From positions 181,600-245,599 of the forward strand of contig JAGXFW010000026.1 of the NCBI GenBank assembly GCA_024637035.1: DNA of 64,000 bases. The letters are read 5' to 3'. The translations under genes and the position numbers were made by a program. This stretch comes from Actinomycetes bacterium. Its GTDB lineage: Bacteria; Actinomycetota; Thermoleophilia; RBG-16-64-13. Below, piece by piece: positions 4,185 through 28,452 of this stretch. Positions within the stretch are counted from its first letter, which is position 1. The number at the start of each line of letters is the position of its first letter. The notes beneath the pieces are model-generated. The model had not been told where the DNA came from. It searched no databases and worked only from the letters and a program-made list of their open reading frames with translations.

Positions 4185-4196
4185 TCCCCGACTCGC

Positions 4197-4967: not shown

Positions 4968-4995
4968 CAGCCTTTCTCGCCTGGATCCCGCCCGT

Positions 4996-5940: not shown

Positions 5941-5946
5941 CCCCGG

Positions 5947-7391: not shown

Positions 7392-7552
7392 GCCTTCACC
7401 GACCCCAATCGATGTGGAGACTTGGAAGAACGACGGACCCAGCGGGAGACAGGATGCCCATGCCCCTGGGTGATGGATGGTAGTATTCTCCGGCAAACAG
7501 GGCTCCATTTCAAGGACAGCCCCTCCCACCACTTCCGAAAGAACAGCACGCC

Positions 7553-8194: not shown

Positions 8195-8197
8195 GCC

Positions 8198-10333: not shown

Positions 10334-10370
10334 GCTCGACGGGTCGTCGACGACCCACCGCGCTGATGCT

Positions 10371-10559: not shown

Positions 10560-10621
10560 CGCTCCTTTCGAAGGCAGAAGCCCCCGGGCACGAGCCCGGT
10601 CACCTACCTGCCCTTGAGGGA

Positions 10622-10660
10622 CAAAAAAAGCCTGGCAGCGCGCAGGCCACCAGGCATATC
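10622..10660 (-). terminator. Candidate rho-independent terminator downstream of moeA
   Basis: Minus strand reads GCCTGG...GC-rich loop...CCAGGC followed by TTTTTTT; A7/T7 runs are otherwise essentially absent from this GC-rich window. Confidence 0.45.
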
Positions 10661-10830
10661 GGACGATTTCGACCGGAGTTCGGGAAGAACATCTCCCCTC
10701 CGGCGGGGGCAAGCCCCCTGATTCAGACGAGGAATCATGACACGGTCATTCTACCCCCGGCAGTCCCCTCGCACAAGGCGGATGTCTTCCCGTCGCCCCC
10801 CGGGTCGAGCCTGAGAGGGCGTGCTGCGGT

Positions 10831-12051
10831 TCAGGCCTCGCGCCCCTCTGCGCGCAGCAACGTCATCTCGACCTCGTCCCCGGCCTTGATCCCGTGGGTG
10901 TCGGCCGGTACGAAAACAAGCCCATCGGCGTTCACCATCGAACGAAGGATGCCGGACCCCTGCGGCCCGGTACTCGTGGCGTACCAGCGATCGCCGACCC
11001 GCCGGGCACGCACCCGTACCACCTGCACCCGCCCATGCCGATTCGCAAGGTCTTCCTCGATGATGGCCCGGTATGTAGGGCGCAGCACCCTTCGATGACC
11101 CATCATGCTGAGCAGCGCCGGCCTGACGAACAGCTCGAACGAGACCATGGCGGCGACGGGGTTGCCAGGAACACCGAAGACCAGACACCCACCTCTAACC
11201 CCGAAGACCAGAGGCTTCCCGGGCTTCATGGCCACCTGCCACAGCTTGCGCTCGACGCCGAGTTCGTCCTGGACATCCTTCACGAAATCGAACTCCCCTA
11301 CCGACACGCCACCTGAGGTGATCAGCACATCGTAGCCAAGGCCCTGTTCGAGAAGGCGACGGGTGGCATCGCGTTCGTCGGGGGCGATTCCGAGCCGCTC
11401 GGCCTCGATGCCGATCTCACGACACTGGGCCTGCATCGAGTAGCTGTTGGAGTTGCGTATCTGGCCGGGAGCAATGGGCTGGTCGATCTCGACCAGCTCG
11501 CTGCCTGTGGAGACGATCGCCACACGGGGTAGTCGATACACGTGCAGCTTGGGACGCCCCATGCTGGCCGCCAGACCTATCTCGGCGGGCCCGACCACGT
11601 CTCCCGCGTGCAGTACCGTGGTGCCGGCGCGCACATCTTCGCCGGCGAAACGGACGCTCGTGCCCACTTCCACCTGGCGGCGGATCAGGACGTGGTCGCC
11701 ATCATCCTCCGTGGACTCGACCTCGACGACCGCATCAGCGCCTCGTGGCATCGGAGCCCCTGTCATGATCTTGACCGCCTCACCTGCCTGCAGCTCGAGG
11801 CGCGCGACATGGCCCGCAGGCACGGTCTCGGAGATGCGGAGTCGAGCGGGTGTCTCGTCCGCACCAACAGTCTCGGCGGCCTTCACCGCGAAACCGTCCA
11901 TCGCCGAGTTGTCAAAGGGAGGCACGGCGTGTGGAGCAACGACATCACGCGCGAGCACCCGTCCAAGAGCCTCGACAACCCCGACTTCTTCAGGCTCAAG
12001 GACCACGGCTTCGGCGAGAACGAGCCTCAGGGCCTCCTCGATTGTGACCAT
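10831..12051 (-). CDS. moeA: Molybdopterin molybdenumtransferase
   Basis: ...VPPFDNSAMDGFAVKA...GDVVGPAEIGLAASMG...ITSGGVSVGEFD are MoeA/gephyrin E-domain motifs; 406 aa. Confidence 0.85.
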   Translation of the reverse strand: MVTIEEALRLVLAEAVVLEPEEVGVVEALGRVLARDVVAPHAVPPFDNSAMDGFAVKAAETVGADETPARLRISETVPAGHVARLELQAGEAVKIMTGAPMPRGADAVVEVESTEDDGDHVLIRRQVEVGTSVRFAGEDVRAGTTVLHAGDVVGPAEIGLAASMGRPKLHVYRLPRVAIVSTGSELVEIDQPIAPGQIRNSNSYSMQAQCREIGIEAERLGIAPDERDATRRLLEQGLGYDVLITSGGVSVGEFDFVKDVQDELGVERKLWQVAMKPGKPLVFGVRGGCLVFGVPGNPVAAMVSFELFVRPALLSMMGHRRVLRPTYRAIIEEDLANRHGRVQVVRVRARRVGDRWYATSTGPQGSGILRSMVNADGLVFVPADTHGIKAGDEVEMTLLRAEGREA

Positions 12052-12155
12052 GCCGTTCCCTCCGATTGCACTCTGCGTATAAAGGAGTGAGGCCTACCGA
12101 CCGATATGTCAGGATAACATGGCCTCTGTCCCATAGGCCGAACTCGACGAGGTAG

Positions 12156-12458
12156 GTGCGTAGAGAAATGATCATCTCGCAGACCGAGGTCCTCAAAGTG
12201 ATAGACCTAATGGACAGCAGCGCCGTGATCGCAAGCCTTCTGCTCACCTCCCCGTCTCGCAGCCACCGGGATGACACCGAAGGGTCCCTCGTATCGCAGG
12301 CGACGACTATCGATGCCCAGAGCTACCGTAGAGGCCGGGTCGAAGACCTGCGACGCCTCTTTGCCAGCGGCGAATACAGCGTGGCGCCCCTCGACGTAGC
12401 CGACAAGATGCTCGGGCGTGCGTTCTGCGACCAGATGGCCCGTCTCTACGACCGCTGA
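12156..12458 (+). CDS. FlgM-family anti-sigma-factor-like protein (tentative)
   Basis: C-terminus RVEDLRRLFASGEYSVAPLDVADKMLG resembles the FlgM motif (K-V-x-x-L-K-x-A-I-x-x-G-x-Y-x-V-D-x-x-K-I-A). No flagellar genes nearby. Confidence 0.35.
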   Translation: MRREMIISQTEVLKVIDLMDSSAVIASLLLTSPSRSHRDDTEGSLVSQATTIDAQSYRRGRVEDLRRLFASGEYSVAPLDVADKMLGRAFCDQMARLYDR

Positions 12459-12535
12459 GCGCGTAGCGCACGCGCGTTTGTCGCCTGCCCCGCGGCGACC
12501 TACAATGCAGCCTGACCACACAGCGGGGAGAATCG

Positions 12536-14362
12536 ATGCAGTTCATCGGCCGGCGACGTATCGCGGACCGCATATGGCAGTCTAGGAAGATCACCTACGC
12601 GGCGAGTTCGACCGTCGTGGCCTTGGGCATGATCGCCGTCTTCCTCCTCATTTCGACCCCGTCTTCGGACATCACCGTGTCCACGAAGCCGACCTTCTTC
12701 GAAGCACCCCGCGCATTCCGAGCCGCGCAAGAACTATCCGAGCGGTTCTCCAACCCCGGTCTGGGAACCGAGCAGGCCGAACTCGAAGCGCAATACGTCG
12801 CCGACCGCCTCGATGAATTCGACATACCGCACGAAGATCAGCGTTTCACCGTTCCGTTCGGACACAGTGAGGTCGCTCTTAGGAACGTGTACGCGGTCTT
12901 CCCTGGGGCGAGTAGCGAGGCGATCCTCGTCACCACCTCGCGCGACCCCGACCCCGCGAGCAGACTGTCGCCCCTCGCCAATGCGACGGGCACCGCCATA
13001 CTCTTCGATCTCGCCCAGGTGTTCGCGGCACGCCCGCACGAGCGTACGATCATCCTCCTCTCCACCGAGGGTGCGGCCTACGGTGGATTGGGGCTCGCCC
13101 ACTTCCTGGAGAACGATCCCCTCGCTCAAGACGTACTAGTGATCCTGGCGATCCGAGGGCTGGGCAGGGAAGAGCGGACGGTGCTCCAGGGGAGTGTCTC
13201 CGGCCCCGACGGCTCGACGCCCGGCTGGTACCTGCGGCTGGTGTCTCGTGCCCTGCGGGAGTCCGATCTGACTCTCGAGACGACGAGTCTGGTGCGCCAG
13301 GTGGCCGATCAATCACTTCGCATAGGCTGGGGGCCTCAGGTGGCCGGACTGCGGGCCGGGATACCCTCTCTCCTCCTGCATGACCCAGACGGAGGCGCAC
13401 CATCATCCGCGGGTATGGCCACGCACGGGACGGCGATCGAGCGGATCGTGATGAGTCTGGACAGCGGCACCGAGATCCCTTCAGACCCAGGCACCGCAAT
13501 CGTGCTCCAGTCTGGACGATTCCTGACGAGGCGGGCGATCTCCTTCCTCGGCCTGCTCACGCTCCTGCCGGCGGCTCTGATGGCGGGCACCTGGCTCGGT
13601 GTGTCCCGCGTGCGACCCGAGGTGTGGGTACGGTACCTGCGCAACCTGCTGTCGTTCGCCCTGCCCTTCGCGCTCTTCGTCCTCGTCGCATATGGCGCGG
13701 CCCGGATCGGCCTCATGCCCCGCTATCCCCACCAGGCGCCCCTCGACGCCGCTCCTGCCAGAGACCCCGACTATTTCGTCTCGATCGCGCTCCTTATGAT
13801 AGGGCTGATCCTGTTCCTCCTCAGCCGCCACTACCTTGGCCACCTGCGAACCAGTGAGCCATTGATCATGACCGAGACCATGAAGCTGAGCACGGGCCTG
13901 GTCGTGCTGGTGGCAGGGCTCGCGGTACTCACGTTCAACTCGCCGTTCTCCCTGCTGACCGGGCTCACGGCCGCGTGGCTCTGGCCCCTGGTGACGTGTT
14001 TCGCTGAGCCGCGCGACGCAAGCAAGTGGCTGCGACCAGCCAGGAAGAACTCCAGACTGCTGCTGGCCGGTCTTGCGGCACCCGCGATGCTCTACGTCTA
14101 CCTGGTTCTCGCCACGGACATCCGCTGGTGGCAGGGCTGGTGGTACCTACTGGTGCAGTCGGTCTCCGGCGCCTATGGGCTGTGGGGACCCCTGGCCTCA
14201 GTGCTGATCACGGCCGGGTTCTTCACACTTCTAGGAGTGCGGCGGCTCCAGCTCATCCCTGTGGAGACCCTCGACGAAGAGGTGGACTTCGACAGAGTCG
14301 GTATGCCGACCGGGCGCGTCAAGAAGACGCGCGACCCTGGAGTCCCGGGCAACTACGAGTAG
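12536..14362 (+). CDS. Integral membrane protein with N-terminal extracytoplasmic M28-peptidase-like domain
   Basis: Signal anchor, then NVYAVFPG...GTAILFDLAQVFA...TIILLSTEGAAYGGLGLAHF resembling the M28 aminopeptidase fold, followed by about 8 predicted TM helices. Zinc ligands appear degenerate. Confidence 0.5.
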   Translation: MQFIGRRRIADRIWQSRKITYAASSTVVALGMIAVFLLISTPSSDITVSTKPTFFEAPRAFRAAQELSERFSNPGLGTEQAELEAQYVADRLDEFDIPHEDQRFTVPFGHSEVALRNVYAVFPGASSEAILVTTSRDPDPASRLSPLANATGTAILFDLAQVFAARPHERTIILLSTEGAAYGGLGLAHFLENDPLAQDVLVILAIRGLGREERTVLQGSVSGPDGSTPGWYLRLVSRALRESDLTLETTSLVRQVADQSLRIGWGPQVAGLRAGIPSLLLHDPDGGAPSSAGMATHGTAIERIVMSLDSGTEIPSDPGTAIVLQSGRFLTRRAISFLGLLTLLPAALMAGTWLGVSRVRPEVWVRYLRNLLSFALPFALFVLVAYGAARIGLMPRYPHQAPLDAAPARDPDYFVSIALLMIGLILFLLSRHYLGHLRTSEPLIMTETMKLSTGLVVLVAGLAVLTFNSPFSLLTGLTAAWLWPLVTCFAEPRDASKWLRPARKNSRLLLAGLAAPAMLYVYLVLATDIRWWQGWWYLLVQSVSGAYGLWGPLASVLITAGFFTLLGVRRLQLIPVETLDEEVDFDRVGMPTGRVKKTRDPGVPGNYE

Positions 14363-14438
14363 GGATGCGGTGGGCTCCGCCCAGGCGCGGCCGTAGGCCC
14401 GACCCGGGCGCGTCTGGCCGGCGCCCGTCAGGCGCCCG

Positions 14439-15155
14439 TCAGTCCAGGTCGAGGTACTCCAGGGCCATGTGACGGATCAACTCACCGTTCTCGGCGCACT
14501 TGTCGGCGAGGGCTTCGAGCCGCTCGATGATGGCCTTGAGTTGATGGAAGGTCTTGAAGTCAGTGTCCATGTCGAACATCGCCTTGTACATCTCGGCGAA
14601 CACGCGGTCGGCGCGGCTCTCGATCGCGTCGATCTCGATGGCGATGCCCACGCACTCCCGGAAGTCCCCACGCATGGCGAAGACGGCATCGCGGAGCTTC
14701 CGAACAGCCTCAAGATCGATCTTGGCCATCTCCACGAGCAGCTTGTTGAAGTCGGCAGGTAGCGTGAAGCGACGCATGACGATGCGGTCGACCGCGCCCA
14801 CGGCCAGGTTCGCGATGACGTCCATCGAGGCCACGAGGCGCGAGAGATCGGCGCGGCCCATGGAGAAGACGCCGGCGGACGACAGGCTATCGAGTATCTC
14901 GAGCTTGCGGTCGTCGGCCGCGCTCTCGAGCTTGTCCAGTTGGGCCGCGGTCACCGCCAGCCCCTCGTAGTCGTCGGCCACGAAGTAGCGCACCGCCGTG
15001 CCGAGTTCGTCGACGATCTCCACGACCTTGTCGGTGAACTCTCTCACCTCGGCAAGCACTTGACCTTCCTTGTGCCTGCCCATGGCGTCGATAGCGCCCT
15101 CGAGCGACGCCGGGCCGCCTAGGGAACGTCTGATCTTCTTGAAGGTGTCGCTCAT
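14439..15155 (-). CDS. DUF47 family (PhoU-like) protein, partner of PiT transporter
   Basis: 238-aa all-helical protein lying 20 nt upstream of, and co-oriented with, a PiT phosphate transporter; this pairing is common in bacterial genomes. Confidence 0.75.
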   Translation of the reverse strand: MSDTFKKIRRSLGGPASLEGAIDAMGRHKEGQVLAEVREFTDKVVEIVDELGTAVRYFVADDYEGLAVTAAQLDKLESAADDRKLEILDSLSSAGVFSMGRADLSRLVASMDVIANLAVGAVDRIVMRRFTLPADFNKLLVEMAKIDLEAVRKLRDAVFAMRGDFRECVGIAIEIDAIESRADRVFAEMYKAMFDMDTDFKTFHQLKAIIERLEALADKCAENGELIRHMALEYLDLD

Positions 15156-15174
15156 GTCCTCTCCTCCCCGGAAC

Positions 15175-16272
15175 CTACATCACCAGGTTCAAGGCGTAAT
15201 AGATGAGTGCAGCGGCAATGGCGCAGAACGGCAGAGTCACCGCCCACGCAAGCATGATCGCACGGAACACTTTCCAGCTGACCGAACCAAGTCCTCCCGC
15301 CAGGCCCGTACCCGTGACCGACGAGGTGACCACGTGCGTCGTCGAAACCGGCAACCCGAACAGCGAGGCCGCCTGGATGATGAGTGCCCCACCGGCTTCC
15401 GCGCTGAAGCCGTTCACGGGGTGCAGGTGCGTGATCTTCTCCCCCAGGGTTCGGATGAGGCGGAACGACCGCACCGACAGGTACGTGCCGACCGCCATCG
15501 CGGAGGCAGCTGAAAGGATCACCCACAGCGGGAACCCGTATTCCAGGATGTACTCATCCACATCGAGGCCTTCCCGCGCGGCGATGAAGATCAGGATGAT
15601 GCCCATGACCTTGGTGGCGTCGTTCGAACCATGGCTGAACGACACCCAACTGGAAGAGAGTATCTGCATGTGCCGGTAGAAGCCGTCGGCCCTGTCCAGG
15701 TCGAGACGCAGCCGACCGAAGACGAACTTGCTCATCTTCATGAACAGGTATCCGGTGGCGATGCCCAGGATGGGTGAGATCAGCAGTGAGCTGAAGATCA
15801 GGGCGACCTTGCCGAAGTTGATGCCCGCGGGACCGAGCGCGGCCATACCCGCTCCGAGAAGACCGCCGACGAGCGCATGAGACGAACTCACGGGGAGCGC
15901 CCATATCCAGGTGAGGATGTCCCACAACAGAGCGCCCGCGAGCGCCGCGATCACAAGGTGAGCCGTGGCGTCAGACGCCTTGATCACGCCGCCGATGGTG
16001 GAGGCGACCGCCACCCCGATCACCAGAGGCCCGATGAAGTTGAAGAACGCGGAGATCCCGATGGCGACCTTCGGTTTCAGGGCGCCGGTATAGATCACCG
16101 TGGAAACAGCGTTACAGCCGTCGTGGAATCCGTTCATCACGTCGAACGCGAGCGCAACCGTCACGACGGCGATGAGGAGGATGGTCTCGGTACTCACGAA
16201 CGCACCTCCGCACCACCAGACAGACTCACACGATCTCCCTCGGGTCGGGTTCCTCTGAGAACGGCCCGCCAA
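15175..16272 (-). CDS. Inorganic phosphate transporter, PiT family
   Basis: NGFHDGCNAVSTV and SHGSNDATKVMGII match the PiT GANDVANA-like repeats; polytopic. True start is probably the internal GTG near 16207. Confidence 0.8.
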   Translation of the reverse strand: MAGRSQRNPTRGRSCESVWWCGGAFVSTETILLIAVVTVALAFDVMNGFHDGCNAVSTVIYTGALKPKVAIGISAFFNFIGPLVIGVAVASTIGGVIKASDATAHLVIAALAGALLWDILTWIWALPVSSSHALVGGLLGAGMAALGPAGINFGKVALIFSSLLISPILGIATGYLFMKMSKFVFGRLRLDLDRADGFYRHMQILSSSWVSFSHGSNDATKVMGIILIFIAAREGLDVDEYILEYGFPLWVILSAASAMAVGTYLSVRSFRLIRTLGEKITHLHPVNGFSAEAGGALIIQAASLFGLPVSTTHVVTSSVTGTGLAGGLGSVSWKVFRAIMLAWAVTLPFCAIAAALIYYALNLVM

Positions 16273-18997: not shown

Positions 18998-19189
18998 GAC
19001 TCACCCCCTTTGCGGACGGGCTCAGCGCGCGGTCTGGAGAGGGCTCGAGCCGGCCCCGCGTGGGATCTTTCCCGGCCGCCGACCGAGGACCGGCGCGACG
19101 CGAAAACACAACCCGTGCATTCTCTCACGAACCGAGGGTGGGTGCTACGAGGTGCGTGGACGCTCGTACCGGTCTGCCTGTGAAGACCT

Positions 19190-19402
19190 ATGCTCCGCTG
19201 TCGGGAAGTTGTAGAGGGGTGTGCAATTGTCACGTCAGCGGAGGCGCCCGTGCCCCAAGTCGTCATCGAGAACCCCATCCTGAGCTCCCCCTTCGACGAG
19301 CCACGCCGCCACTTCCGGTTCGGCGAGGACGGGATTACCGACGAGATCACCGAGGCCCGCCGGGTCAGCTCCTACTTCGTGCCCAGAAGTCGCTTAAGCT
19401 GA
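19190..19402 (+). pseudogene. N-terminal remnant of a restriction-endonuclease / helicase-like (type III Res-like) protein
   Basis: VIENPILSSPFDEPRRHFRFGEDGITDEITEARRVSSYFVP resembles the conserved N-terminus of large restriction/helicase subunits but stops after 70 aa; the opposite-strand vapC follows immediately. Confidence 0.35.
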
Positions 19403-19462
19403 TCCTTGGCATGGTTGAGCCTTCCGCCATCTTGTGGCCCCACAACTGGGTGTCGCTTCTCG

Positions 19463-19894
19463 CTATTGCTCCAGGGCCTCTCCCGGAGACAGCGCCTCGA
19501 TGTCGGGAGATAGACGGGTGCGCTGTTGCCGGTCGAGCGTGACCAGCGTGGCACCGAAACGTTGAGCCGTCGCTCCGTAGACTGCATCGCTGCCCTTCAT
19601 GCCCCTGGTCATGGCGAGACCCGCGGCGGCCTCAGCCAAGGAATCGTCCAAGGATACAAAGATAGCGCCCGAGATGTGCTCCACTCCTACCGTCACCAAG
19701 CGGGCGATATCCTGGCTCCCGCTAATCCTCCGCGAGCCGGCCGCAACTTCTGGCAGCACCAAGGTGGGTAGCACGACCGGGATCCTTTCTGCGTGCAGCC
19801 ATTCGAGGAATCTGCGGCTGGTGACGTGCCCGGCTTCGGTGGCGTTGGCAGCGTTGAGGAACACACTCGCGTCCACCGTGATCGGTCCGCGCAT
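19463..19894 (-). CDS. vapC: PIN-domain toxin (VapC-like)
   Basis: ITVDASVFLNA...LVTLD shows the PIN acidic-residue pattern; start at the internal MRGPITVD; lies 5 nt downstream of the antitoxin gene. Confidence 0.7.
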   Translation of the reverse strand: MRGPITVDASVFLNAANATEAGHVTSRRFLEWLHAERIPVVLPTLVLPEVAAGSRRISGSQDIARLVTVGVEHISGAIFVSLDDSLAEAAAGLAMTRGMKGSDAVYGATAQRFGATLVTLDRQQRTRLSPDIEALSPGEALEQ

Positions 19895-19899
19895 GAGGT

Positions 19900-20160
19900 C
19901 TACCGTCTCATCTCGTCGAGGACCTCGACGCTCGTGAGAGGTGTGTTCCAAGACTTGCCCAGGGCGTCAAGCGCAGCGAACAGTTGGGACCAGGACTCGT
20001 CTGGTGTCAGCGACTGCGCCTCTTCCTTGGGTGAGTACGGCACGATCACTCCAACCGGTTCACCCCGATGAGTCACTATGTAGCGAGCGCGATTCTCGCG
20101 GATGTCGCGCATCACCTCTGACGCGTGGGTCTTCAGATCCCGGACACCGATGCGGGGCAT
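19900..20160 (-). CDS. Phd/YefM-family antitoxin
   Basis: MPRIGVRDLKTHASEVMRDIRENRARYIVTHRGEPVGVIVPY is the classic Phd/YefM N-terminus; start at the internal M (20160). Confidence 0.65.
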   Translation of the reverse strand: MPRIGVRDLKTHASEVMRDIRENRARYIVTHRGEPVGVIVPYSPKEEAQSLTPDESWSQLFAALDALGKSWNTPLTSVEVLDEMRR

Positions 20161-20326
20161 GACGATATCCTCCGGATAATGTGGTTCTAAGAGTAACCAC
20201 ATAGTACTCCGATCCTCCCGCCGTGTCGCTACCCGTCGGCTTCTCATCGACTCGGGACATCATGGACCGCACGATATGGGAGTGGTATCGGTCTTTGGTT
20301 GTACGTTGGCCCAGCCCACACAACGC

Positions 20327-20390
20327 GTTTGGGCAGTCGGCAAAAAGGGAAGTTTCGAACGTTTGGGCAGTCGGCAAGAAGGGAAACTTC
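20327..20390. repeat. Two tandem 30-nt direct repeats (28/30 identical) separated by 4 nt
   Basis: gtttgggcagtcggcaaaaagggaagtttc / gaac / gtttgggcagtcggcaagaagggaaacttc, in the divergent intergenic region between the phd-vapC operon and the lipoprotein gene, and followed by an AT-rich stretch. Confidence 0.6.
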
Positions 20391-20449
20391 ATAATTAATA
20401 GAAATGGCGCAATGGCGAATGCCTGCAGAGCCGCGAGAAGGGTGGACCG

Positions 20450-20656
20450 ATGAAGAGCAAGCGGCGTAGGGGAGTACTGGCATTCGTAGGGTCGATATGG
20501 ATCTTGGCCGTTGCATTGGCCGGTTGCGATGTCTCGAGCACGACTCCGAGTTCAGGCTCCATGATGGGAACGACTCCGGGTTCGGGCTCCATGATGGGAA
20601 CGACTCCGTCGGGTTCGAGCGGAATGATGTACGGCACCACCCTGCCGGAACAATGA
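20450..20656 (+). CDS. Small lipoprotein with Met-rich tandem peptide repeats
   Basis: Signal peptide with lipobox LAGC; mature part contains GSMMGTTPGSGSMMGTTPSGSSGMMYGTT repeats. Confidence 0.5.
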   Translation: MKSKRRRGVLAFVGSIWILAVALAGCDVSSTTPSSGSMMGTTPGSGSMMGTTPSGSSGMMYGTTLPEQ

Positions 20657-20747
20657 TGAGAGGCCCGCCTTCCGCCTCCTCGTATCGATCGGGGTCACCG
20701 GGAGGACATGCATACGTGAACACGCGATTCGGGGAGACATCGAGATA

Positions 20748-20891
20748 ATGAACGGTTGGAACAACATGATGAACGGATGGGACGGCGGTATGGGCGGAGC
20801 GTTCGCGTGGCTGTTCATGCTTCTCTTCGTGGTCGCCGTCATAGTCGGAGTCGTGCTCGTGGTCAGGGGTACCGGCCGCGGAGGGCGATAA
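20748..20891 (+). CDS. Unlisted 47-aa membrane micropeptide (MNGWNNMMNGWDGGMGG + one TM helix)
   Basis: Hand translation gives ATG at 20748 preceded by GGGGAGA: MNGWNNMMNGWDGGMGGAFAWLFMLLFVVAVIVGVVLVVRGTGRGGR*. It sits 90 nt downstream of the Met-rich lipoprotein and is too short for the ORF track. Confidence 0.35.
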   Translation: MNGWNNMMNGWDGGMGGAFAWLFMLLFVVAVIVGVVLVVRGTGRGGR

Positions 20892-21139
20892 CGAGCAAGG
20901 CAGGGTCTGCCGGCGGGAAGGCCAAGAAGGCCACTGCCGGCGCTCCCCTAGAGCGTGAGTAATCTCGCCGCGTCGGCCGACTTCTCACCACTCTGATCGA
21001 CGAAGAAGACGTCCACCGACAGCAATGCGCTGTTGAACTGCACGACCATCTACCCGGCGAGAAGCTGCCGGCCGGGTCTCCAAGGGCTGGGATTCGACAG
21101 GAACTTGTCGGGACTGCCTCGCTCGCCGGGCGGTACCTG

Positions 21140-21370
21140 CTATCGAATCCCTGGAGCATCTCCCTCTTCCACCAGCGCCGCCAGATTGCGTGCATTCCCG
21201 TCCGGCACCGCGTGCACGCTCGTGTGATGAAGCGCCGGTACCCCGATCGCGGCTACAACCGAGATGATTGCGACAACCACGAGTACATCCATGGCGCTAA
21301 AGCCCCCGTCATGGGCGCCCCTCACGAGGGAAGAGCCAGGGATCAGAGCGGCTAGGCGAGATAGCTGCAT
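21140..21370 (-). CDS. Possible prepilin-like small protein (type IV pilin-type N-terminus)
   Basis: MQLSRLAALIPGSSLVRGAHDGG|FSAMDVLVVVAIISVVAAIGVPA resembles the class-III signal G/F-x-x-x-E plus hydrophobic helix, but Glu+5 is replaced by Asp and the protein is very short. Confidence 0.2.
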   Translation of the reverse strand: MQLSRLAALIPGSSLVRGAHDGGFSAMDVLVVVAIISVVAAIGVPALHHTSVHAVPDGNARNLAALVEEGDAPGIR

Positions 21371-21746
21371 AGAATGCCCGGGTTCGAGTAGAGCGAACGT
21401 TCCGCTGCCTGTCCCCAGCTGAAGAGGACTCCGAGGAGATAGGCCGCGCGGAGCCCGGTGGCCGCGGAGATCGTGATTCCAACCCGGAGCTTGCTCAACA
21501 GGGTGCCCCAAAGCCGCTGAGTGACCACGTACCCATCGGGCTCTTGGATCGCGGGCTTGGGCCCCCGGGCCCTACGTCGATCTCGCCGCCAGACCACGGA
21601 GGCTGGGGAACGGAGGTACGTGCCGCCGCGGGCTGAGGCCGCAGGCCCGCGGCCCGCTCCTACCGAAGGCCCAAAGCCGATGCTAGTATTGCGGCACTCG
21701 GCCGCCGGCCGGCGGCGCTGGAAACTCGGAACACGGGGCTGTACTC

Positions 21747-24700
21747 ATGAGACCCACTTTGACCGCTGTCGAACGCGACCTCCGGGGGATCCTCCACGGC
21801 GACGTCGAGTTCGACGCCATCACCCGCCACCTCTATTCCACCGATGGGGGTGTCTACCAGATCGTCCCCATGGGAGTGGTGAGTCCTCGCGATGCCGAGG
21901 ACGTCGTCAAGATCGTCGAGTACTGCACCGAGCGCGGCATCCCGATCGTGCCTCGCGGCTCCGGCTCCGGGCTAGCCGGCGCAGCAGTCGGCTCAGGCCT
22001 CATGGTCGACTTCACCCGCTACATGAACCAAGTGCTCGAGACGGCTCCCGACGGCTCGTGGGCACGCGTGCAACCAGGGTTGGTGATGGGCGCCCTGAAC
22101 GCGCACGCCAAGAAGTACGGCACCTTCTTCGCTCCAAACCCCTCGAGCGAGAACTACTGCTCGCTGGGCGGGATGATCGCGAACAACTCGTCGGGAGGGC
22201 GAAGCGTCGCCTACGGCGGCACGAAGGACCACGTGTTGGCTCTCGACGTGGTGTTGTCCGGGGGCGAGCTCTTCCATGCCGGCTCGGTGGGACGAGACTC
22301 TGAGACGCTCGGCGCACTCATGGCGGCAGGGTCGCTCAGTGGGAGGGCCTTCGCCGACATCCTGCCCCTCCTCGACCGGAAGCGGGCCGCTATCGCCGCG
22401 GCGATGCCGCGGGTGATGAAGAACTGCTCCGGCTATCGAGTGGAGAACGTGCTCGAATGGGGCGCCTCCCCAACCGGATACGGCGGCTGGGACAGCTCGG
22501 TCGCCCTCGCGGCAGCCGACGATGCTTGGGCGCGCGCCGAATTACACAAACTCTTCGTAGGCTCCGAGGGCACGCTGGGTCTGGTGACCGAAGCCACTCT
22601 CAATCTCGTTCCCGTGCCGCAGCGCCGCGCCATCGGTATGGCCTACTTCCCCACCGTCTTCACGGCGGGGGAAGCGGTGCAGTCCATCCTGGGCCTCAAA
22701 CCCACTTCGCTTGAGATCATGGACGCGAGCTTCCTGCGCTTCGTGCGCGAGGCCAACTCGAAGATCGACGCGATGCTGCCAGCTCAGGTGGACACCGCCC
22801 TTCTTGTAGAGTTCGAGGCCGCGAATGACGACGAGCTGGACGAGAAGCTCTCCCAGCTGGAAGGCCTCCTAGCCGGCGGCGACGCGATCGAAGTGAAGCG
22901 CGCCCTCGACCCCGCCGACCAAGCGCAGCTGTGGTCGGTACGCCAGGGGGCGGTGCCCCTGCTCCAGCGTCTGCCCGGCGCGAAGAAGATCGTGGAGTTC
23001 ATCGAGGACGCCACCGTGCACCCCGACGTCCTGGCCCAGTACATGAGCCGCCTCTCGACCATCCTGCAGAGTCACGGCGTCCAAGCGATCATGTACGGGC
23101 ACGCCGGCGACGGCAATATCCACACCAGGCCGATACTCGACATGCGCGACCCCGGCGACCTCAACCTCATGCACCGCATCATGGAAGAGGTCATGGAAGT
23201 GGTCATCGACCTCAAGGCCACGCCCTCGGGGGAGCACGGCGACGGCCTCGTGCGCACCCCTTACGTGCGCCGCGTCTACGGCGACGAGGTCTACGGGGTC
23301 TTCGAGAAGATCAAGAACACCCTTGACCCGGGCGGCATCATGAACCCAGGGAAGAAGGTGGCGAATCCAGCGGAAGCCGGCGGCATCGCCACCAACCTGC
23401 GCTACGGACGGGGCTACTGGACGCACGAGCAATCCACCGAACTGCACTTCCCCTCGGATGAATACGCACGTGAGATCGAGAAGTGCCACGGGTGCGCCCA
23501 GTGTAAGAGCGTGGTGGCCACCACGATGTGCCCCACATACAAGGCCACCCGCCGCGAGCACGCCTCGCCCCGCGCCAAGGCCAACCTGCTGCGCAACGTG
23601 ATCAACGGCAGGCTCGACCCCCAAGCCACTCACACGCTGGCGGCCACCAAGGAGATCACCGACTACTGCATCGAGTGCGGCATGTGCGCCCTCGAGTGTC
23701 CCTCGCGGGTGAACATCCCCAAGCTTATGCTCGAGGCCAAGGCGAAGTACCGCACCGCCCACATGGGCGGGGTCACCGACCAAGTGCTGGGCCACGCGGA
23801 GCTGGTGTCGCGCGTGAGCCGCGCCACCTCGGCGGTGTTCAACCCGCTCGTGGGCAACCCGGTGGTGCGGCGTCTTACCGAGCGGGTGGCCGGCATCGAT
23901 CGCCGCCGCGATCTGCCCTCATACGCCCGGAGGAGCTGGGAGCAGGTCCTTGCTGCGCGCGAGAAGAACGGCGGCGCGGCGGCGGCGGGCGCAACGCCCA
24001 CGTCCGGCGAGAAGAGCGGTACCCAGGGCAAGCCGGTGGCCTTCTTCTACGACGTCTACGCCAACTACAACGATCCCGCGCTCGCCCAGACTATGGAGTC
24101 GCTCCTGCTAGCCCACGGCGTTCCGGTGACCTTCCCGGCGCAGAAGGGCAGCGCGGTGCCGGAGATGCTGTACGGCTACGTGCAACGTGCCAAGGCCACG
24201 GCCGGCTACAACGTGCGGAACTTCGCCCCTCACGTGCGCGAGGGCGAGTTGCTCGTGAGTGGGGAGCCCACGGCGAGCTTCGCCTTCAAAGTGCACTACC
24301 CCGACATCACTCCAAGCGAGGAGTGCTCGCTGGTGGCGAACGCCACGCGAGACTTGGGCGAGTTCCTGGTCTCCCGCCGAGCCGAGAGGCCTGAGTGGGC
24401 GCCGCAACCCGTGAACGAGATCCCCTTGACGGTCGCCTACCATCAGCCCTGCCATCTCAAGACCCAGCAGATCGGCAGCCCGTTCCTGTCGCTCCTGCGC
24501 GAGGTTCCGGGGCTCACCATGGTGGACCTGGACGCCGGATGCTGCGGCATGGCCGGTACGTTCGGCATGAAGGCCGGCACGTACGATTTGAGCATGGAGA
24601 CAGGCAGGCCACTGTTCGAGCGGGTCGCTGCTGTGACCCCCGACTTGGTGGCCTCCGAGTGCAGCACCTGTCGCATGCAGCTGGCCCAGGCAACGGGCAA

Positions 24701-24749
24701 GGACACGATCCACCCGGCGGAGCTGTTGGCTCGCGCCTACGGCATCTAG
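21747..24749 (+). CDS. FAD-linked oxidase fused to 4Fe-4S/CCG domains (YdiJ / D-2-hydroxyacid dehydrogenase-like, GlcD-GlcF fusion)
   Basis: N-terminal FAD-binding PCMH domain (VVPRGSGSGLAGAAVG), central CxxCxxC...CP ferredoxin motifs (CHGCAQCKS...CIECGMCALECP) and C-terminal Cys-rich CCG domains; 1000 aa. Confidence 0.85.
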   Translation: MRPTLTAVERDLRGILHGDVEFDAITRHLYSTDGGVYQIVPMGVVSPRDAEDVVKIVEYCTERGIPIVPRGSGSGLAGAAVGSGLMVDFTRYMNQVLETAPDGSWARVQPGLVMGALNAHAKKYGTFFAPNPSSENYCSLGGMIANNSSGGRSVAYGGTKDHVLALDVVLSGGELFHAGSVGRDSETLGALMAAGSLSGRAFADILPLLDRKRAAIAAAMPRVMKNCSGYRVENVLEWGASPTGYGGWDSSVALAAADDAWARAELHKLFVGSEGTLGLVTEATLNLVPVPQRRAIGMAYFPTVFTAGEAVQSILGLKPTSLEIMDASFLRFVREANSKIDAMLPAQVDTALLVEFEAANDDELDEKLSQLEGLLAGGDAIEVKRALDPADQAQLWSVRQGAVPLLQRLPGAKKIVEFIEDATVHPDVLAQYMSRLSTILQSHGVQAIMYGHAGDGNIHTRPILDMRDPGDLNLMHRIMEEVMEVVIDLKATPSGEHGDGLVRTPYVRRVYGDEVYGVFEKIKNTLDPGGIMNPGKKVANPAEAGGIATNLRYGRGYWTHEQSTELHFPSDEYAREIEKCHGCAQCKSVVATTMCPTYKATRREHASPRAKANLLRNVINGRLDPQATHTLAATKEITDYCIECGMCALECPSRVNIPKLMLEAKAKYRTAHMGGVTDQVLGHAELVSRVSRATSAVFNPLVGNPVVRRLTERVAGIDRRRDLPSYARRSWEQVLAAREKNGGAAAAGATPTSGEKSGTQGKPVAFFYDVYANYNDPALAQTMESLLLAHGVPVTFPAQKGSAVPEMLYGYVQRAKATAGYNVRNFAPHVREGELLVSGEPTASFAFKVHYPDITPSEECSLVANATRDLGEFLVSRRAERPEWAPQPVNEIPLTVAYHQPCHLKTQQIGSPFLSLLREVPGLTMVDLDAGCCGMAGTFGMKAGTYDLSMETGRPLFERVAAVTPDLVASECSTCRMQLAQATGKDTIHPAELLARAYGI

Positions 24750-24750
24750 G

Positions 24751-26017
24751 AGGAGCAGCGATGTACATCGACGTGCCCTGGGATACCGGCTCGGTGCCCT
24801 TGAAGCTGGCCCGAGAACGGCTTGGTGAGGTCATCGAATCACGCACACTCACCGTGCGCGACGAGGCGGTGCACCTGAACGCGATCCTCGCGGGCGGCGA
24901 CGGGCGCTCGTCGTTCGACGAGTTCCTCGATGCAGCCGAGGGCCGCATCCTGTTCCTGGTCAACGACGCCACCCGCCCGACCCCCAGCGGCCGCGTCATC
25001 GAGATCATCGCCGACCGGCTCCGCGGCCGAAACGTCGAGTTCATGGTCGCCACGGGGGCGCACAAGATACCCGGCGAGACCGAACTCGAGCAGATCTTCG
25101 GCCGCAACATGCGCGAGCGCTTCATCGACCGCATCTCGAGTCACGACGCGCGCGACGAGGCTTCGCTCGTGTACCTCGGCGAGACCTCGCGGGGCACCCC
25201 GGTGTGGGTGAACCGCCACCTAGCTGAGGCCACCGACGTCGTGCTCATCAACTCCGTCGAACCCCACTACTTCGCGGGCTACACCGGAGGCCGCAAGTCG
25301 ATCTTCCCAGGCGTGGCGGGCTTCGCCACCATCGAGGGCAACCACAAGTTGGCGCTGGACCCCGCGGCCGACAACCTGGCCCTCGAGGGCAACCCGGTGC
25401 ACGAAGACATGATGGAGATGATGGGCATGCTCTCCGAGAAGCGCATGTACTCCATCCAGATGGTGCTCGATCACCAACATCGGATCCACTACGCCTACGC
25501 GGGTGACCTCGAGGAGAGCTGGCGCACGGCGGTGGAACACGCCGACGGACACTACGTGGTCGAGTTGAGCACCCGCTACGACATCGTGGTGGCGGCGGCT
25601 CCCTATCCCATGGACTACGACCTCTACCAGTCGCAGAAGGCGCTCGAGAACGGCTCTCTTGCCCTGAAGGACGGGGGCATCCTCATCTTGGTCTCGAAGT
25701 GTCGCCACGGCATCGGCGAAGAGACCTTCTTCACTTTGATGGCCAAGGCCGCCACCCCAGACCAGGTGCTCGCCTCGATCTTGGGCGACTACGTACTCGG
25801 TTTCCACAAGGCCGGGCGCCTGGCTCTGATCGCCAAGCGAGGGGAGATGTGGGGTGTCACCAGTCTCCCCGACGAAGACCTCGACGCCGCCTTCATCCGG
25901 CCGTTCCCCAGCGTACAGCGCGCGGTCGACGCCGCCCTCGCGAGGAAGGGGCCCAATGCCAAGGTACTCTTCTTGATGGACGCCTCGATCACCGTGCCGC
26001 GGGTGAACGGAGGGTAG
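24751..26017 (+). CDS. LarA-family (lactate racemase-like, DUF2088) protein
   Basis: FLVNDATRPTP...MVATGAHKIPGE match the LarA N-terminal domain motifs; ATG at 24751 preceded by AGGAGG; start lies 2 nt after the upstream stop. Confidence 0.7.
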
Positions 26018-26198
26018 AACGGGGGCTGGCGCCGGCTCCCCTGTCGAGCTCGCACTTCAAGACCCCCTAAACTCGACTACCGGTACTGCCGCGAGCCCCA
26101 GCCAATTCACCCAAGTGCGCAGTCTCCCGGGATCGGGCCTGGGGCCGTCCCCGTGAGGCGATTTTGAGTGCGCAGCGGACCATCCGGACATCCCTTAG

Positions 26199-26339
26199 GT
26201 GAGTATCATCGGCCAGAGGAACGTGCTGGCCCACGAGTACGGATCGATCGACCAGACGCGCATCTGGGTGCTCGTAGCAGACCGCATCCCGGATATCATC
26301 ACCCGACTCGACGATGCGATGCCGGAACCTCCCAACTGA
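26199..26339 (+). pseudogene. C-terminal remnant of a HepT/DUF86 (nucleotidyltransferase-substrate-binding) toxin gene
   Basis: Translation ...IIGQRNVLAHEYGSIDQTRIWVLVADRIPDIITRLDDAMPEPPN* carries the DUF86 R-N-x-x-x-H-x-Y motif, but only about 46 aa remain and no MntA partner is present. Confidence 0.4.
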
Positions 26340-26371
26340 GCCAACGTCCCGCGGTACGGCTCCCCCTCGCC

Positions 26372-26641
26372 TCAGGTCCCGATCAAGTCGAACAGCCACC
26401 ACGAGGCGGCGAGCGGCACGATCATCAGGAACGCGGCCGCAACATAGCGGCGGCGCCACACGAACAGCGCGGCGAACACGAGGTAGAGAGAACCGAAGAA
26501 GGTTGCGCCGGGGTCCGCGACGCCTATGCTGAGCGGCCAGGTGTAGAGGAAGAGCGCGGCCTGGAAGGACAGCGCTAGAGCCGGGCCGACGTACGGCAAC
26601 TCACTGATCCACCCGACCGGCCGGAGCAGATCACCCTCCAT
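26372..26641 (-). CDS. Small hydrophobic membrane protein (3 predicted TM segments)
   Basis: 89-aa ORF with W/F/L-rich helices and GC3-biased codons; no recognisable family. Confidence 0.35.
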   Translation of the reverse strand: MEGDLLRPVGWISELPYVGPALALSFQAALFLYTWPLSIGVADPGATFFGSLYLVFAALFVWRRRYVAAAFLMIVPLAASWWLFDLIGT

Positions 26642-26911
26642 CGGGCTGTTCGCGTACCAGAGCGCCGGTTGCTGAGACTCCCGTCATCGATCGACCTCCG
26701 GACCATGGGTGACTGCCAGACACGGCAACCATGAAGTTCCGGAGACTGCGGGTCAAGGGGCCCGCTCGTCTCCCCGCCACCGACGACTTCTCAGCGCGGT
26801 CGGTTCCTGCTGCCACACGCACGAAACGGCTCCCGACGACGGATGTCGACGGGAGCCGGGGGGATCGCGGTCAGCGGGGGTGCCGCAGCCCGTGTCGGAT
26901 CTCGTTACAGG

Positions 26912-27445
26912 TTAGGCGGCGGGAGGAGCGACGATGCACGTGCCCAGGCTGCCGGCTGCGCCCCGACCCATACCTTGACCCTGGCCGCGGCCGCCGAACG
27001 TTCCGGCTTCCCCATCCGCGCCTTGGCTTCCGCGAGGGCCGACTGCAGGATCAACGACTCTCTCGGAGACGCGCTCGGTCATGCGCTCCATCATAGCGTC
27101 GGCTCGCTCCTGGGTCAGCGTACCCGCCTCGACTGCTTCGTCGATCGATCCCTGGCGCGCCTGCAGGATGGTGCCGATAAGCGTCTGAGTATCCACGCCT
27201 TTCTCTGTGGCGATCTCGGCCAGGCTTTGCCCGCCGTGACGAGCGGTCTCTAGATCGTCCACGGACATGCCGAGCAGTCCGGCCACCGCGGTGTGGATGA
27301 CTCCGACGCCGGGGTGCGGAGAACCGGCCCATGCAGCCTGAGGTGTAGATCCGTCGATGGACTCGGCGGCAAGCGCCGGTGAAGCGGCGGTGACCATCAG
27401 GGCCAGCGCGGCTACGAGGGTTGGTATGGTCCGCTTGAGTCTCAT
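26912..27445 (-). CDS. Secreted hypothetical protein (signal peptide, Gly-rich C-terminus)
   Basis: N-terminal signal MRLKRTIPTLVAALALMVTAASPALA|AE; the mature part is helical then Gly-rich. Confidence 0.45.
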   Translation of the reverse strand: MRLKRTIPTLVAALALMVTAASPALAAESIDGSTPQAAWAGSPHPGVGVIHTAVAGLLGMSVDDLETARHGGQSLAEIATEKGVDTQTLIGTILQARQGSIDEAVEAGTLTQERADAMMERMTERVSERVVDPAVGPRGSQGADGEAGTFGGRGQGQGMGRGAAGSLGTCIVAPPAA

Positions 27446-27654
27446 TCTCAGCTCCTTCGTTTATCCGCACCGGATGATACCGGAGCGGACTCTGAACGGG
27501 ATAGTGATACTCACGATAGCGGCGAGTCGTAAGCGAACTATGAAAGGATGGTGAGAATTCAACGTCGGACTGGAGGTTGGATATCAAGTTCGTCGGGCCA
27601 GATCCGATCGTTCCGTCTTTGGGCGTTTCGCCCCCTGGTGTGTAGGATGACGAG

Positions 27655-28452
27655 GTGACTGCTGAGATGCCAGCGTACGATTCGAGTAGCCCGACGAAAC
27701 GGGCGACGCTCACCACCGTGATCGCTCTATGGCTTCTCTGGGCCCTGTTGCTGTTCGGCGGTTTCGCGCTCGGCTCCGCGGCGGACGATCCCACCCACCG
27801 CATGCCCACTTGGACCCGCATGGCGTCGTCGCTGGCTTTGGTCGCCGCAGGGTGGGCGTGGTTCGCGCTATCGCGTTCGGGGGGCGGTCGGGGCGATCAG
27901 GGCAGCCCGCGCTTCCCACTGTTCTTGGCGCTCGGCATGACCGCCGGCCTCGCAGGAGACCTCATCCTGGCCGGGCTTCTCCCTGGAGGGGAGAACGTGC
28001 TCGCCGGGATCGCGGCCTTCGGCATCGGGCACGTGCTGTACATCGCCGCGATCCTCCACTGGGCGGGAGCCCACGGTCTCAACCGAGCCGGCCCGCGCTG
28101 GGCCTCGTTCGCGGCGTGGTGGGTGATCGGCGCGCTGGCCTGGTACCTGGTCGTATTCAGAGGGCAGGAGGCAACCGTGCTCCACTGGGCGGCGCTCCCC
28201 TACGCGCTTCTGCTGGCCGGCACCTGCGGCGCCGCCACCGGGGTGGCGGCGCAGACCCGCACCTTCGTACCGATGGCTGTGGGCGCAGCCCTGTTCCTGG
28301 CCAGCGACCTCATCCTGGCCGCGCAGCTCTTCAACGACCTCGACTTCGCACTGATCGGCGACGTGATCTGGCTCACGTATGGGCCGGGCCAGATGCTGAT
28401 CGTGTACACGAACGCGGTAACGCGAGAACCACGCCGCGGGGCCATCACCTGA
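27655..28452 (+). CDS. YhhN/lysoplasmalogenase-family membrane protein
   Basis: Eight hydrophobic segments with conserved GD...LA and FxxGHxxY-like motifs (GIGHVLYIAA) typical of the YhhN family. Confidence 0.5.
   Translation: MTAEMPAYDSSSPTKRATLTTVIALWLLWALLLFGGFALGSAADDPTHRMPTWTRMASSLALVAAGWAWFALSRSGGGRGDQGSPRFPLFLALGMTAGLAGDLILAGLLPGGENVLAGIAAFGIGHVLYIAAILHWAGAHGLNRAGPRWASFAAWWVIGALAWYLVVFRGQEATVLHWAALPYALLLAGTCGAATGVAAQTRTFVPMAVGAALFLASDLILAAQLFNDLDFALIGDVIWLTYGPGQMLIVYTNAVTREPRRGAIT

Follow-up and report, generated by a model that had tools for sequence, protein, structure and literature searches.

A predicted operon of a flavin/iron-sulfur dehydrogenase fusion and a LarA-superfamily racemase in a Thermoleophilia genome

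Genes and domains of the pair

We analysed a 64,000-nucleotide stretch of contig JAGXFW010000026.1 (positions 181,600 to 245,599, assembly GCA_024637035.1), hereafter the window, which comes from a Thermoleophilia/Actinomycetota metagenome-assembled genome (MAG), has a G+C content of 66% and carries two adjoining genes predicted to act on 2-hydroxy acids. The upstream gene (21747..24749) encodes a 1000-residue fused D-2-hydroxyacid dehydrogenase, comprised of a VAO/GlcD-type FAD part, a ferredoxin part with two [4Fe-4S] motifs and a GlpC-like CCG part, as judged from its open reading frame (ORF), Pfam, NCBIfam and an alignment with YdiJ. The downstream gene (24761..26017) encodes a 418-residue 2-hydroxyacid racemase of the LarA (nickel-pincer nucleotide, NPN) superfamily, whose translation, Pfam, NCBIfam and PDB matches, pairwise identities and neighbour-joining tree point to group 4 of Desguin et al. 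2020, the 'putative malate racemases'. Both genes, with the domains and motifs described in this section, lie on the plus strand. The reading frame and the Pfam domains agree with the fusion of FAD oxidase, ferredoxin and CCG module that a first-pass annotation had recognized. The dehydrogenase ends with TAG at 24747-24749 and the racemase starts with ATG at 24761, leaving a spacer of 11 nt rather than the 2 nt of that annotation; the AGGAGG Shine-Dalgarno sequence that it had noticed is present at 24748..24753, overlapping the stop codon and lying 7 nt before the ATG. A mechanically called GTG start at 24395 would lie inside the dehydrogenase gene with a 355-nt overlap, and it was rejected in favour of ATG 24761 because the homologues align from Met-1 of the latter. 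Judged by these signals, the junction is a normal tight operon junction, and translational coupling of the two genes is plausible; among relatives the junction is variable, with intergenic distances of ~15 to 95 nt. The third-position G+C (GC3) is host-like in both genes, namely 0.87 in the dehydrogenase and 0.89 in the racemase. An Rfam scan of 19000-27700 at E ≤ 1 gave zero matches, and therefore no described riboswitch or leader RNA lies ahead of the operon; likewise, a scan of 20800-27000 for sigma-70 promoters and intrinsic terminators found nothing exceeding the shuffled expectation, so that consensus signals do not define the operon boundaries.

The flavin part of the dehydrogenase consists of an FAD_binding_4 domain (residues 42-178, 21870..22280; PF01565, E 2.2e-38) and an FAD-oxidase_C substrate/cap domain (residues 291-536, 22617..23354; PF02913, E 2.3e-54), and these domains, together with the H-x-GDGN-x-H and EHG motifs in the latter, place the protein among the VAO/GlcD-type dehydrogenases. 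Specifically, the motifs GHAGDGNIH and GEHGDG align with GHVDAGVLH and GEHGKG of YdiJ with the His/His/Glu positions kept, and we take these residues to be the metal ligands known from D-2-hydroxyacid dehydrogenases (human D2HGDH and LDHD structures). In the PDB the FAD domain is closest to glycolate oxidase, mitochondrial D-lactate dehydrogenase (LDHD), LctD and D2HGDH; these solved VAO/GlcD-type relatives all act on D-2-hydroxy acids. The iron-sulfur part starts with two [4Fe-4S] motifs (23472..23708), C580-x2-C583-x2-C586-x8-C595-P and C641-x2-C644-x2-C647-x3-C651-P, as located by the Pfam matches Fer4_8/Fer4_17 (residues 576-655) and a cysteine map. By the same kind of map and PF02754 (residues 896-979, E 1.8e-11), a complete CCG motif lies at the C-terminus (24432..24683; C902 ... 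C932-C933-G ... C972-x2-C975), while an earlier CCG-like repeat (about residues 765-860) has lost its cysteines, as in YdiJ. No stretch of the fusion reaches transmembrane-level hydrophobicity (the highest 19-residue Kyte-Doolittle mean is 1.34).

The architecture is identical to and collinear with that of Escherichia coli YdiJ, including the same insertion in FAD-oxidase_C and the degenerate and complete CCG repeats after the two [4Fe-4S] motifs. The first-pass label 'YdiJ-like' thus holds for architecture and fails for orthology: the full-length collinear BLASTP alignment (E 2e-96) shows 26% identity, and the NCBIfam YdiJ model NF049975, the top NCBIfam match of the fusion, gives 442 bits against a cut-off of 1350, with the GlcD model at 292 bits. 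By these scores the fusion is not a YdiJ orthologue, and the E. coli ydiJ gene does not stand beside a racemase gene. The C-terminal 425 residues resemble the iron-sulfur/CCG subunits GlpC, GlcF and TfrB, with two ferredoxin-type motifs and one full CCG motif; residues 576-999 match the whole GlpC model (PRK11168, NF008369; model positions 9-400 of 401) and narrowly miss its cut-off (267.3 vs 278 bits). Unlike in those systems, the module is here fused to its flavoprotein. E. coli YdiJ itself accepts strictly D-2-hydroxyglutarate (D-2HG) and not D-malate, and donates its electrons to an unknown physiological acceptor, whereas several other D-2HG dehydrogenases of the same enzyme family also oxidise D-malate efficiently (PMC9504171).

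The racemase shows the two-domain LarA fold, with Lar_N (residues 8-202, 24782..25366; PF09861, E 5.3e-48) holding D69, R72, H101, H169, Y170, F171, K179 and H195, and LarA_C (residues 273-402, 25577..25966; PF21113, E 5.3e-13) holding Q290, Q292, K293 and the 'GHK' motif G347-F-H349-K350. It aligns end to end with the Mar2 and LarA structures, in keeping with the LarA-like identity given in the first-pass annotation. In a 30-sequence alignment of homologues the NPN-tethering Lys K179 (K184 of LpLarA), the nickel-ligand His H195 (H200), R72 and D69 (R75 and D72), both catalytic histidines H101 and H169 (H108 and H174) and the carboxylate-binding Q290 and K293 (Q295 and K298) are all invariant. 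Because every defining cofactor and catalytic residue is present, the racemase is by its sequence not a pseudo-enzyme, a fate that the first-pass annotation had tied to loss of the tethering Lys and the catalytic His residues. Of the 87 clade loci examined, whose proteins are 43-96% identical to that of the window, 75 carry exactly the same 13-residue active-site signature, DRHHYFKHQQKHK.

The residues relevant to specificity are Y170, F171, Q292 (just before the catalytic Lys) and G347-x-H349-K350. The published residue rule assigns H/Q,K to malate racemases (MAR), F,F,W,E/Q to lactate racemases (LAR) and Y,F,H/Q,T to hydroxyglutarate racemases (HGR). The window protein reads Y,F,H,K: the lactate signature is absent, and the N-Q-T motif of the hydroxyglutarate groups 7a and 11 is lacking as well, since Y,F and H349 match and the fourth position is K350. 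The first-pass annotation had left lactate, 2-hydroxyglutarate and malate as candidate substrates; of these, the GHK motif speaks for malate, and the signatures of the other two are missing. The best PDB match is Mar2 (LarAH6) of Thermoanaerobacterium thermosaccharolyticum (6D6Z, E 4.7e-52), with which the window racemase shares all catalytic and NPN residues, the GHK motif, the Gln before the catalytic Lys and the Tyr after the catalytic His. Three of the four crystallographic substrate-recognition residues of Mar2 are matched (Y172, K173, Q293 and K351 correspond to Y170, F171, Q292 and K350). The two proteins differ in overall sequence (33% identity) and at the K173/F171 position.

As recommended in the first-pass annotation, the protein was placed among the LarA homologues (LarAHs), with the full sequences of Dataset S2 of Desguin et al. 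2020 as reference. It is 42-45% identical to three group-4 sequences (MMALV_14900 of Ca. Methanomethylophilus, TALC_01392 and Kcr_0555) vs 28-34% to the group 1, 3, 5, 6 and 7 sequences tested, which include Mar1, Mar2 and Hgr. In the neighbour-joining tree the window racemase and all sampled relatives cluster with group 4, and the motifs G347-F-H349-K350 and H169-Y170-F171 appear as in the group-4 rows of the dataset. The window protein and the group-4 sequences share the complete set of signature residues, D,R,H,H,Y,F,K,H..Q,Q,K,G,H,K. By identity, tree and motifs, the window racemase belongs to published group 4. Additionally, an Actinomycetota subgroup of the clade carries N292/Q349/Q350 in place of Q292/H349/K350 and has thus lost the GHK motif (L025, L026, L032, L033, L038, L041, L057, L068, L071, L073 and L089 in our locus numbering; racemase at about 10001-11300 in most); its racemase gene mostly lies between thiolase/sucCD and rpmG-secE-nusG, the exceptions being L068 (sdhA and fumarase neighbours), L041 and L057. 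The subgroup may use a different substrate.

Distribution of the pair and its gene neighbourhoods

The pairing recurs in related genomes, as the first-pass annotation had required, and is seen in Thermoleophilia relatives whose racemases are 65-96% identical, as well as in one Thermoleophilia MAG at 48%. Specifically, the fused dehydrogenase lies directly upstream of the racemase in L003/L004 (95-96% racemase identity), L005/L006/L083 (85-86%), L085/86 (75%) and the more distant Thermoleophilia MAG L068 (48%); in L087 (a 68-69% identical pair) the dehydrogenase holds the same position, split as 792 + 193 residues. The fusion also stands directly upstream of a racemase in the metagenome loci L092-L096, L098, L113, L114, L130, L148 and L153. 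Two of these relatives carry irregular genes: the racemase of L006 (10001-11253, on a 4.6-Mb Thermoleophilia FR_37 contig) is in two frames with a frameshift near 10417-10441, and the two dehydrogenase calls of L087 (7051-9964) overlap at their ends. The frameshift and the split are either assembly errors or real disruptions.

The association reaches well beyond this lineage. Among 80 GTDB species-representative loci, picked solely by racemase similarity (43-96%), 45 loci from many phyla have a GlcD/YdiJ-type dehydrogenase and/or its iron-sulfur partner, split or fused, no more than 6 kb away, and the dehydrogenase adjoins the racemase on the same strand in 34; both counts are lower bounds, as many contigs are short. 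Three arrangements recur. One places GlcD (~476 residues), an iron-sulfur protein (~312 residues) and LarAH in a row, so that the gene order mirrors the domains of the fusion followed by LarAH; another consists of LarAH and then a ~830-residue GlcD::TfrB-like fusion, often with GcvH between them; the third runs LarAH, malic enzyme, GlcD and an iron-sulfur/CCG protein. The same racemase clade is thus accompanied by at least two dehydrogenase subtypes, YdiJ-type in Thermoleophilia and GlcD-type elsewhere, and by at least three kinds of iron-sulfur partner (GlpC-like, TfrB-like and Fer4 + MvhD). Because the dehydrogenase subtypes and partners vary while the active-site signature of the racemase is largely constant, the pairing argues for repeated recruitment by function.

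Published data on group 4 contain traces of this association. The neighbourhood table of Desguin et al. lists for group 4 a COG0247 Fe-S oxidoreductase at 39%, a COG0277 FAD dehydrogenase at 17% and MvhD at 17%, tabulated and not interpreted; their supplementary table also lists malic enzyme with these COGs for group 6, without comment, and Table S1 gives COG0277 at 35% for group 1. Published group 4 has 18-19 members; those examined in Dataset S2 are archaeal, and the tested protein comes from Lactobacillus zymae. Relative to that set, the partner found here is a single 1000-residue YdiJ-type fusion in an actinobacterium, and the larBCE genes, adjacent in 28% of the published set, are not adjacent here.

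Malate and tricarboxylic acid (TCA) cycle enzymes are the commonest neighbours within the clade. In 12 loci the gene immediately upstream of the racemase encodes an NAD-malate dehydrogenase (Mdh; scoring above the TIGR01763 cut-off), and the malic enzyme MaeB is present in 5-7 loci, directly downstream in L088/L090. Aconitase-family genes occur in 12 loci, class-I fumarase in 9, SdhA in 8-9, HdrB/SdhE-like CCG subunits in 8, and citrate synthase and SucCD in 7 each; in L087, sdhABCD, fumarase and malic enzyme all fall within 9 kb. Altogether, at least one malate/TCA-cycle gene is found in 35 of the 80 loci, and either such a gene or the dehydrogenase in 61. The reading of the pair as a plain Mdh replacement was weakened, because genuine NAD-Mdh genes adjoin the racemase in those 12 loci.

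Two further features of these neighbourhoods were observed. A gene for the lipoyl carrier GcvH (above the TIGR00527 cut-off) adjoins the group-4 racemase in 12 loci, namely L019 (11593-12027), L017, L037, L039, L043, L045, L054, L056, L065, L070, L079 and L082; in L019 it lies between the racemase and the ~830-residue GlcD::TfrB-like (Fe-S + CCG) fusion. Since a lipoyl protein there adjoins a CCG module of the thiol/disulfide type, this suggests that a lipoyl disulfide could be an electron acceptor. The WOR-3 loci L019 (6663-9964) and L043 (6834-7907) carry a second LarA paralogue, 40-42% identical, upstream of the group-4 racemase, and in L019 tandem NAD-malate dehydrogenase genes (8090-9013 and 9029-9964) stand between the two LarA genes.

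Searches for the genes of NPN biosynthesis around the pair were negative. A Pfam scan of all window ORFs of at least 200 residues detected no AIRC/LarB, LarC or LarE in the 64 kb, and tblastn against the window with LarE, LarB and LarC of L044, each above its NCBIfam cut-off, gave zero matches at E ≤ 1e-3, in agreement with the first-pass annotation. The gene tables of the Thermoleophilia relatives likewise list no larB, larC or larE within 10 kb of the pair. Across ~170 clade loci (2.03 Mb, tblastn), larE-larB-larC adjoin the racemase in the WOR-3 locus L044 only, with a LarC fragment in L034, and a PP-loop motif screen returned the same single locus, L044. In this clade larBCE are normally unlinked from the racemase, and their absence from the window therefore says little. 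In L044 (7376-14016), the operon LarAH-larE-larB-larC is divergent from citrate synthase and aconitase-family genes.

Predicted reaction and alternative explanations

Together, these data lead us to favour, with modest confidence, a two-gene operon that oxidises a dicarboxylic 2-hydroxy acid, most probably malate, stereo-convergently and without NAD. The parts of this proposal differ in strength: functional coupling of racemase and dehydrogenase is probable, malate as the substrate is a tentative choice, and another hydrophilic or dicarboxylic 2-hydroxy acid (2-hydroxyglutarate, tartrate or glycerate) is possible, if a little less so than malate. From the residues and the family, the LarA homologue would interconvert the L- and D-enantiomers by transient hydride transfer to NPN, with H101 and H169 as the predicted acid/base pair and with the cofactor presumably supplied by LarB, LarE and LarC encoded elsewhere; the distal carboxylate would be held by K350 and H349 of the GHK motif together with Q292. 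The VAO/GlcD-type FAD domain, whose family takes D-2-hydroxy acids exclusively, would then oxidise the D-form, yielding the 2-oxo acid (oxaloacetate in the case of malate), and the motifs suggest that electrons pass from FAD through the two [4Fe-4S] clusters and the GlpC-like CCG cluster to menaquinone or another acceptor. The net reaction would convert L-substrate and acceptor into 2-oxo acid and reduced acceptor without an L-specific dehydrogenase, both enantiomers being processed by one D-specific enzyme.

This principle has a precedent in the lct clusters of Acetobacterium, Anaerobutyricum and Anaerostipes, in which a lactate racemase of the LarA family is encoded with a GlcD-type D-lactate dehydrogenase and EtfAB (PMC8914356, PMC7702098); because the racemase there feeds a D-specific flavoenzyme, both enantiomers are oxidised by one dehydrogenase. 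The present pair differs from the lct clusters in its racemase group (4 vs 1), in its predicted substrate (malate-like vs lactate) and in its outlet (fused Fe-S/CCG vs Etf/bifurcation). If the substrate is malate and the acceptor a quinone, the net effect would be equivalent to that of malate:quinone oxidoreductase (Mqo), a likeness drawn entirely from the predicted reaction: the proteins have no sequence relationship to Mqo, and the work of a single flavoprotein would be divided between two enzymes, with a nickel cofactor in addition.

Several observations weigh against the malate-oxidation proposal. YdiJ, the nearest characterised relative of the fusion, is strict for D-2HG and leaves D-malate unoxidised (PMC9504171). 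Position 171 of the racemase is Phe instead of the Lys of Mar2 (K173), and the resulting Y-F loop is common to hydroxyglutarate racemases. No group-4 LarAH has a demonstrated activity; L. zymae LarAH4, the only member assayed, was insoluble and, after refolding, inactive. The window racemase falls below every NCBIfam equivalog cut-off, including LarAH6 (Mar2, NF052593; 342 bits vs 500), its best match, LarAH5 (Mar1, NF052595; 271 vs 462), the lactate racemase LarA (NF033504; 252 vs 460) and LarAH10 (240 bits), and ten clade relatives do likewise (300-400 bits); as neither they nor the two window proteins reach any such cut-off, no curated functional name can be transferred. The genes for NPN biosynthesis were found neither in the window nor near any Thermoleophilia relative, NAD-Mdh is itself adjacent in 12 loci, and 10 of the 47 full-flank loci have neither the dehydrogenase nor a TCA gene. 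In Desulfobacter curvatus DSM 3379 (L046), the cluster continues into dhaKLM rather than TCA genes (7118-15625, in the order GlcD, a 2xFer4 + MvhD/FlpD protein, racemase, DhaK, DhaL and a DhaM-like phosphotransferase system fusion), a dihydroxyacetone-kinase setting at odds with a simple role in the TCA cycle.

Finally, 53-58% identical dehydrogenase homologues occupy the same syntenic slot as in the window without a racemase within 4 kb, in the shared order MoeA, a 608-residue protein of unknown function, CorA, fusion and convergent sdhBA; such racemase-free loci are L097-L112, L115, L121, L126 and L129 (fusion gene at about 4001-7000 in the full-flank loci). Because the dehydrogenase fills the same slot alone in sister lineages, the pairing is facultative rather than obligate: the two-gene module of the first-pass annotation is supported by conserved pairing and yet is not a fixed unit. 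By this synteny, the dehydrogenase is resident in the lineage, and the racemase was gained, or lost, within one sub-lineage; where it is present, the racemase would extend the reach of the resident dehydrogenase to the L-enantiomer.

Three other explanations were weighed against this proposal. The pair might serve 2-hydroxyglutarate repair or recycling, with the fusion as a YdiJ-type dehydrogenase of D-2HG formed by SerA and the LarA homologue racemising L-2HG, a side product of Mdh, into the same enzyme. The collinearity with YdiJ, a proven strict D-2HG dehydrogenase (PMC9504171) whose model is the top NCBIfam match, is consistent with this idea, although the model score is a third of the cut-off and the identity is 26%. 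Y170-F171 and H349 fit three of the four positions of the HGR rule, whereas the fourth is the Lys of GHK and not the Thr of NQT in HGR groups 7a and 11, and the racemase is 28-33% identical to characterised Hgr vs 42-45% to group 4. Mdh, a known source of L-2HG, is adjacent in 12 loci, and sister lineages retain the dehydrogenase alone, which would suit a housekeeping D-2HG enzyme; the malic enzyme and fumarase neighbours, however, favour C4 over C5 acids. On balance we regard the 2-hydroxyglutarate role as unlikely. Lactate utilisation by a lactate racemase and a quinone-linked D-lactate dehydrogenase is less probable still. GlcD + Fe-S/CCG D-lactate dehydrogenases exist in Shewanella, Desulfovibrio and Geobacter, and the window enzyme would be their fused version. 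Clusters of LarA with D-lactate dehydrogenase are a known pattern, the proteins bear the PGAP-style source name 'nickel-dependent lactate racemase', and glycolate oxidase and mitochondrial D-lactate dehydrogenase are the best PDB matches of the FAD domain. Set against this, the lactate residues F,F,W,E/Q are replaced by Y,F,H,K, which would make the pocket polar and cationic, the LarA model scores below its cut-off (252 vs 460), group 4 stands apart from the lactate groups 1 and 3 in the tree, and no lactate permease appears in the window, the examined relatives' gene tables or the annotated neighbour clusters.

Equally improbable is an absence of functional coupling, in which the racemase landed by chance beside the resident dehydrogenase in a toxin-antitoxin-rich region or is an inactive relic without NPN biosynthesis. 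Such an origin would suit the sister lineages that retain the dehydrogenase alone in the same slot, the PIN/Phd module and truncated HepT remnant that flank the pair, and the lack of larBCE in the 64-kb window; the last point carries little weight when 1 of ~170 clade loci has these genes linked. Of the 80 loci, 45 from many phyla have a dehydrogenase of the GlcD/YdiJ type near the same racemase clade, and in 34 the two genes adjoin on one strand; this contrasts with a chance adjacency of ~1%, which is a rough estimate and not a computed value. The strictly conserved active-site signature is unexpected for a relic, and the racemase gene has host-like GC3 with an intact Shine-Dalgarno sequence and ATG.

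Stereo-convergent malate oxidation therefore stays our preferred reading of the pair, and its possible significance lies mainly outside the window, which by itself gives a modest result of two recognisable enzymes in a sensible operon. Both superfamilies are known, and so is the principle of racemase plus D-dehydrogenase for lactate. For malate-type LarA racemases, which have been called the largest functional group within the nickel-pincer enzyme superfamily, the physiological role has been stated to be open; the literature searched held no functional treatment of a group-4 racemase with an FAD/Fe-S dehydrogenase, of its cross-phylum breadth or of its TCA-cycle setting, and the literature examined held nothing linking 'malate racemase' to a dehydrogenase partner or the TCA cycle. 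The present locus and its ~45 cross-phylum counterparts provide a testable answer, namely that the racemase supplies substrate to a D-specific flavin/iron-sulfur dehydrogenase. Should that substrate be malate, many anaerobes, and some actinobacteria too, would possess a nickel-dependent way around the NAD-malate dehydrogenase step, which is thermodynamically unfavourable. The locus could likewise help in finding the unknown electron acceptor of YdiJ-type enzymes, and its soluble-looking, high-GC racemase is a group-4 expression candidate, the sole previous group-4 attempt having failed.

A bolder extension, which we consider rather doubtful, is that the pair represents a widespread, unrecognised two-enzyme route of NAD-independent malate oxidation, a nickel-dependent functional analogue of Mqo in central metabolism. 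On this speculative view the route might operate in actinobacteria, Chloroflexota, Desulfobacterota, WOR-3, Zixibacteria, Spirochaetia, Thermoplasmata and others. Its electron outlets might conceivably be interchangeable, the same racemase clade pairing with TfrB-like or MvhD-like partners in other phyla: GlpC-like, presumably to quinone; TfrB-like CCG beside GcvH, possibly to lipoyl disulfide; and MvhD-like, presumably to Hdr-type complexes. Where NAD-Mdh stands alongside, it could, in the same conjectural scheme, form with the racemase and D-malate dehydrogenase a cycle between oxaloacetate and malate that moves electrons from NADH to these acceptors.

Surroundings of the pair in the window

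In the window, the pair is bordered on one side by an insert with a PIN/Phd toxin-antitoxin module and on the other by a truncated HepT remnant. The insert (19000-21746; 2.7 kb, with a lower GC of 0.627) separates the dehydrogenase gene from CorA, a distance of 216 nt in the relative L085. It contains the PIN/PhdYeFM pair (19463-20247), an imperfect ~34-nt direct repeat (about 20318-20385) and two short ORFs rich in Gly and Met, one at about 20450-20660 with a lipoprotein-like signal and the other at about 20748-20890. Just 3' of the racemase gene (26200-26339) lies the 46-residue C-terminal remnant of HepT (HEPN, RNVLAHEY motif) without an MNT antitoxin partner.

The farther genes, CorA and GGDEF upstream and YhhN, a luciferase-like gene, PALP, OCD, AKR and GntR downstream, are unrelated to the pair. 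The 608-residue ORF at 12536-14362 has no Pfam match and is syntenic in several relatives including L085 and L101, in the setting MoeA, 608-residue gene and PhoU/PHO4 or CorA. Elsewhere the window carries an aldehyde:ferredoxin oxidoreductase with a ~140-residue N-terminal extension (41280-43574), an MttB-family methyltransferase adjoining an IclR regulator (56117-57580), and three CWB2-domain surface proteins with NHL or cadherin-like repeats (44087-48203 and 62051-63985).

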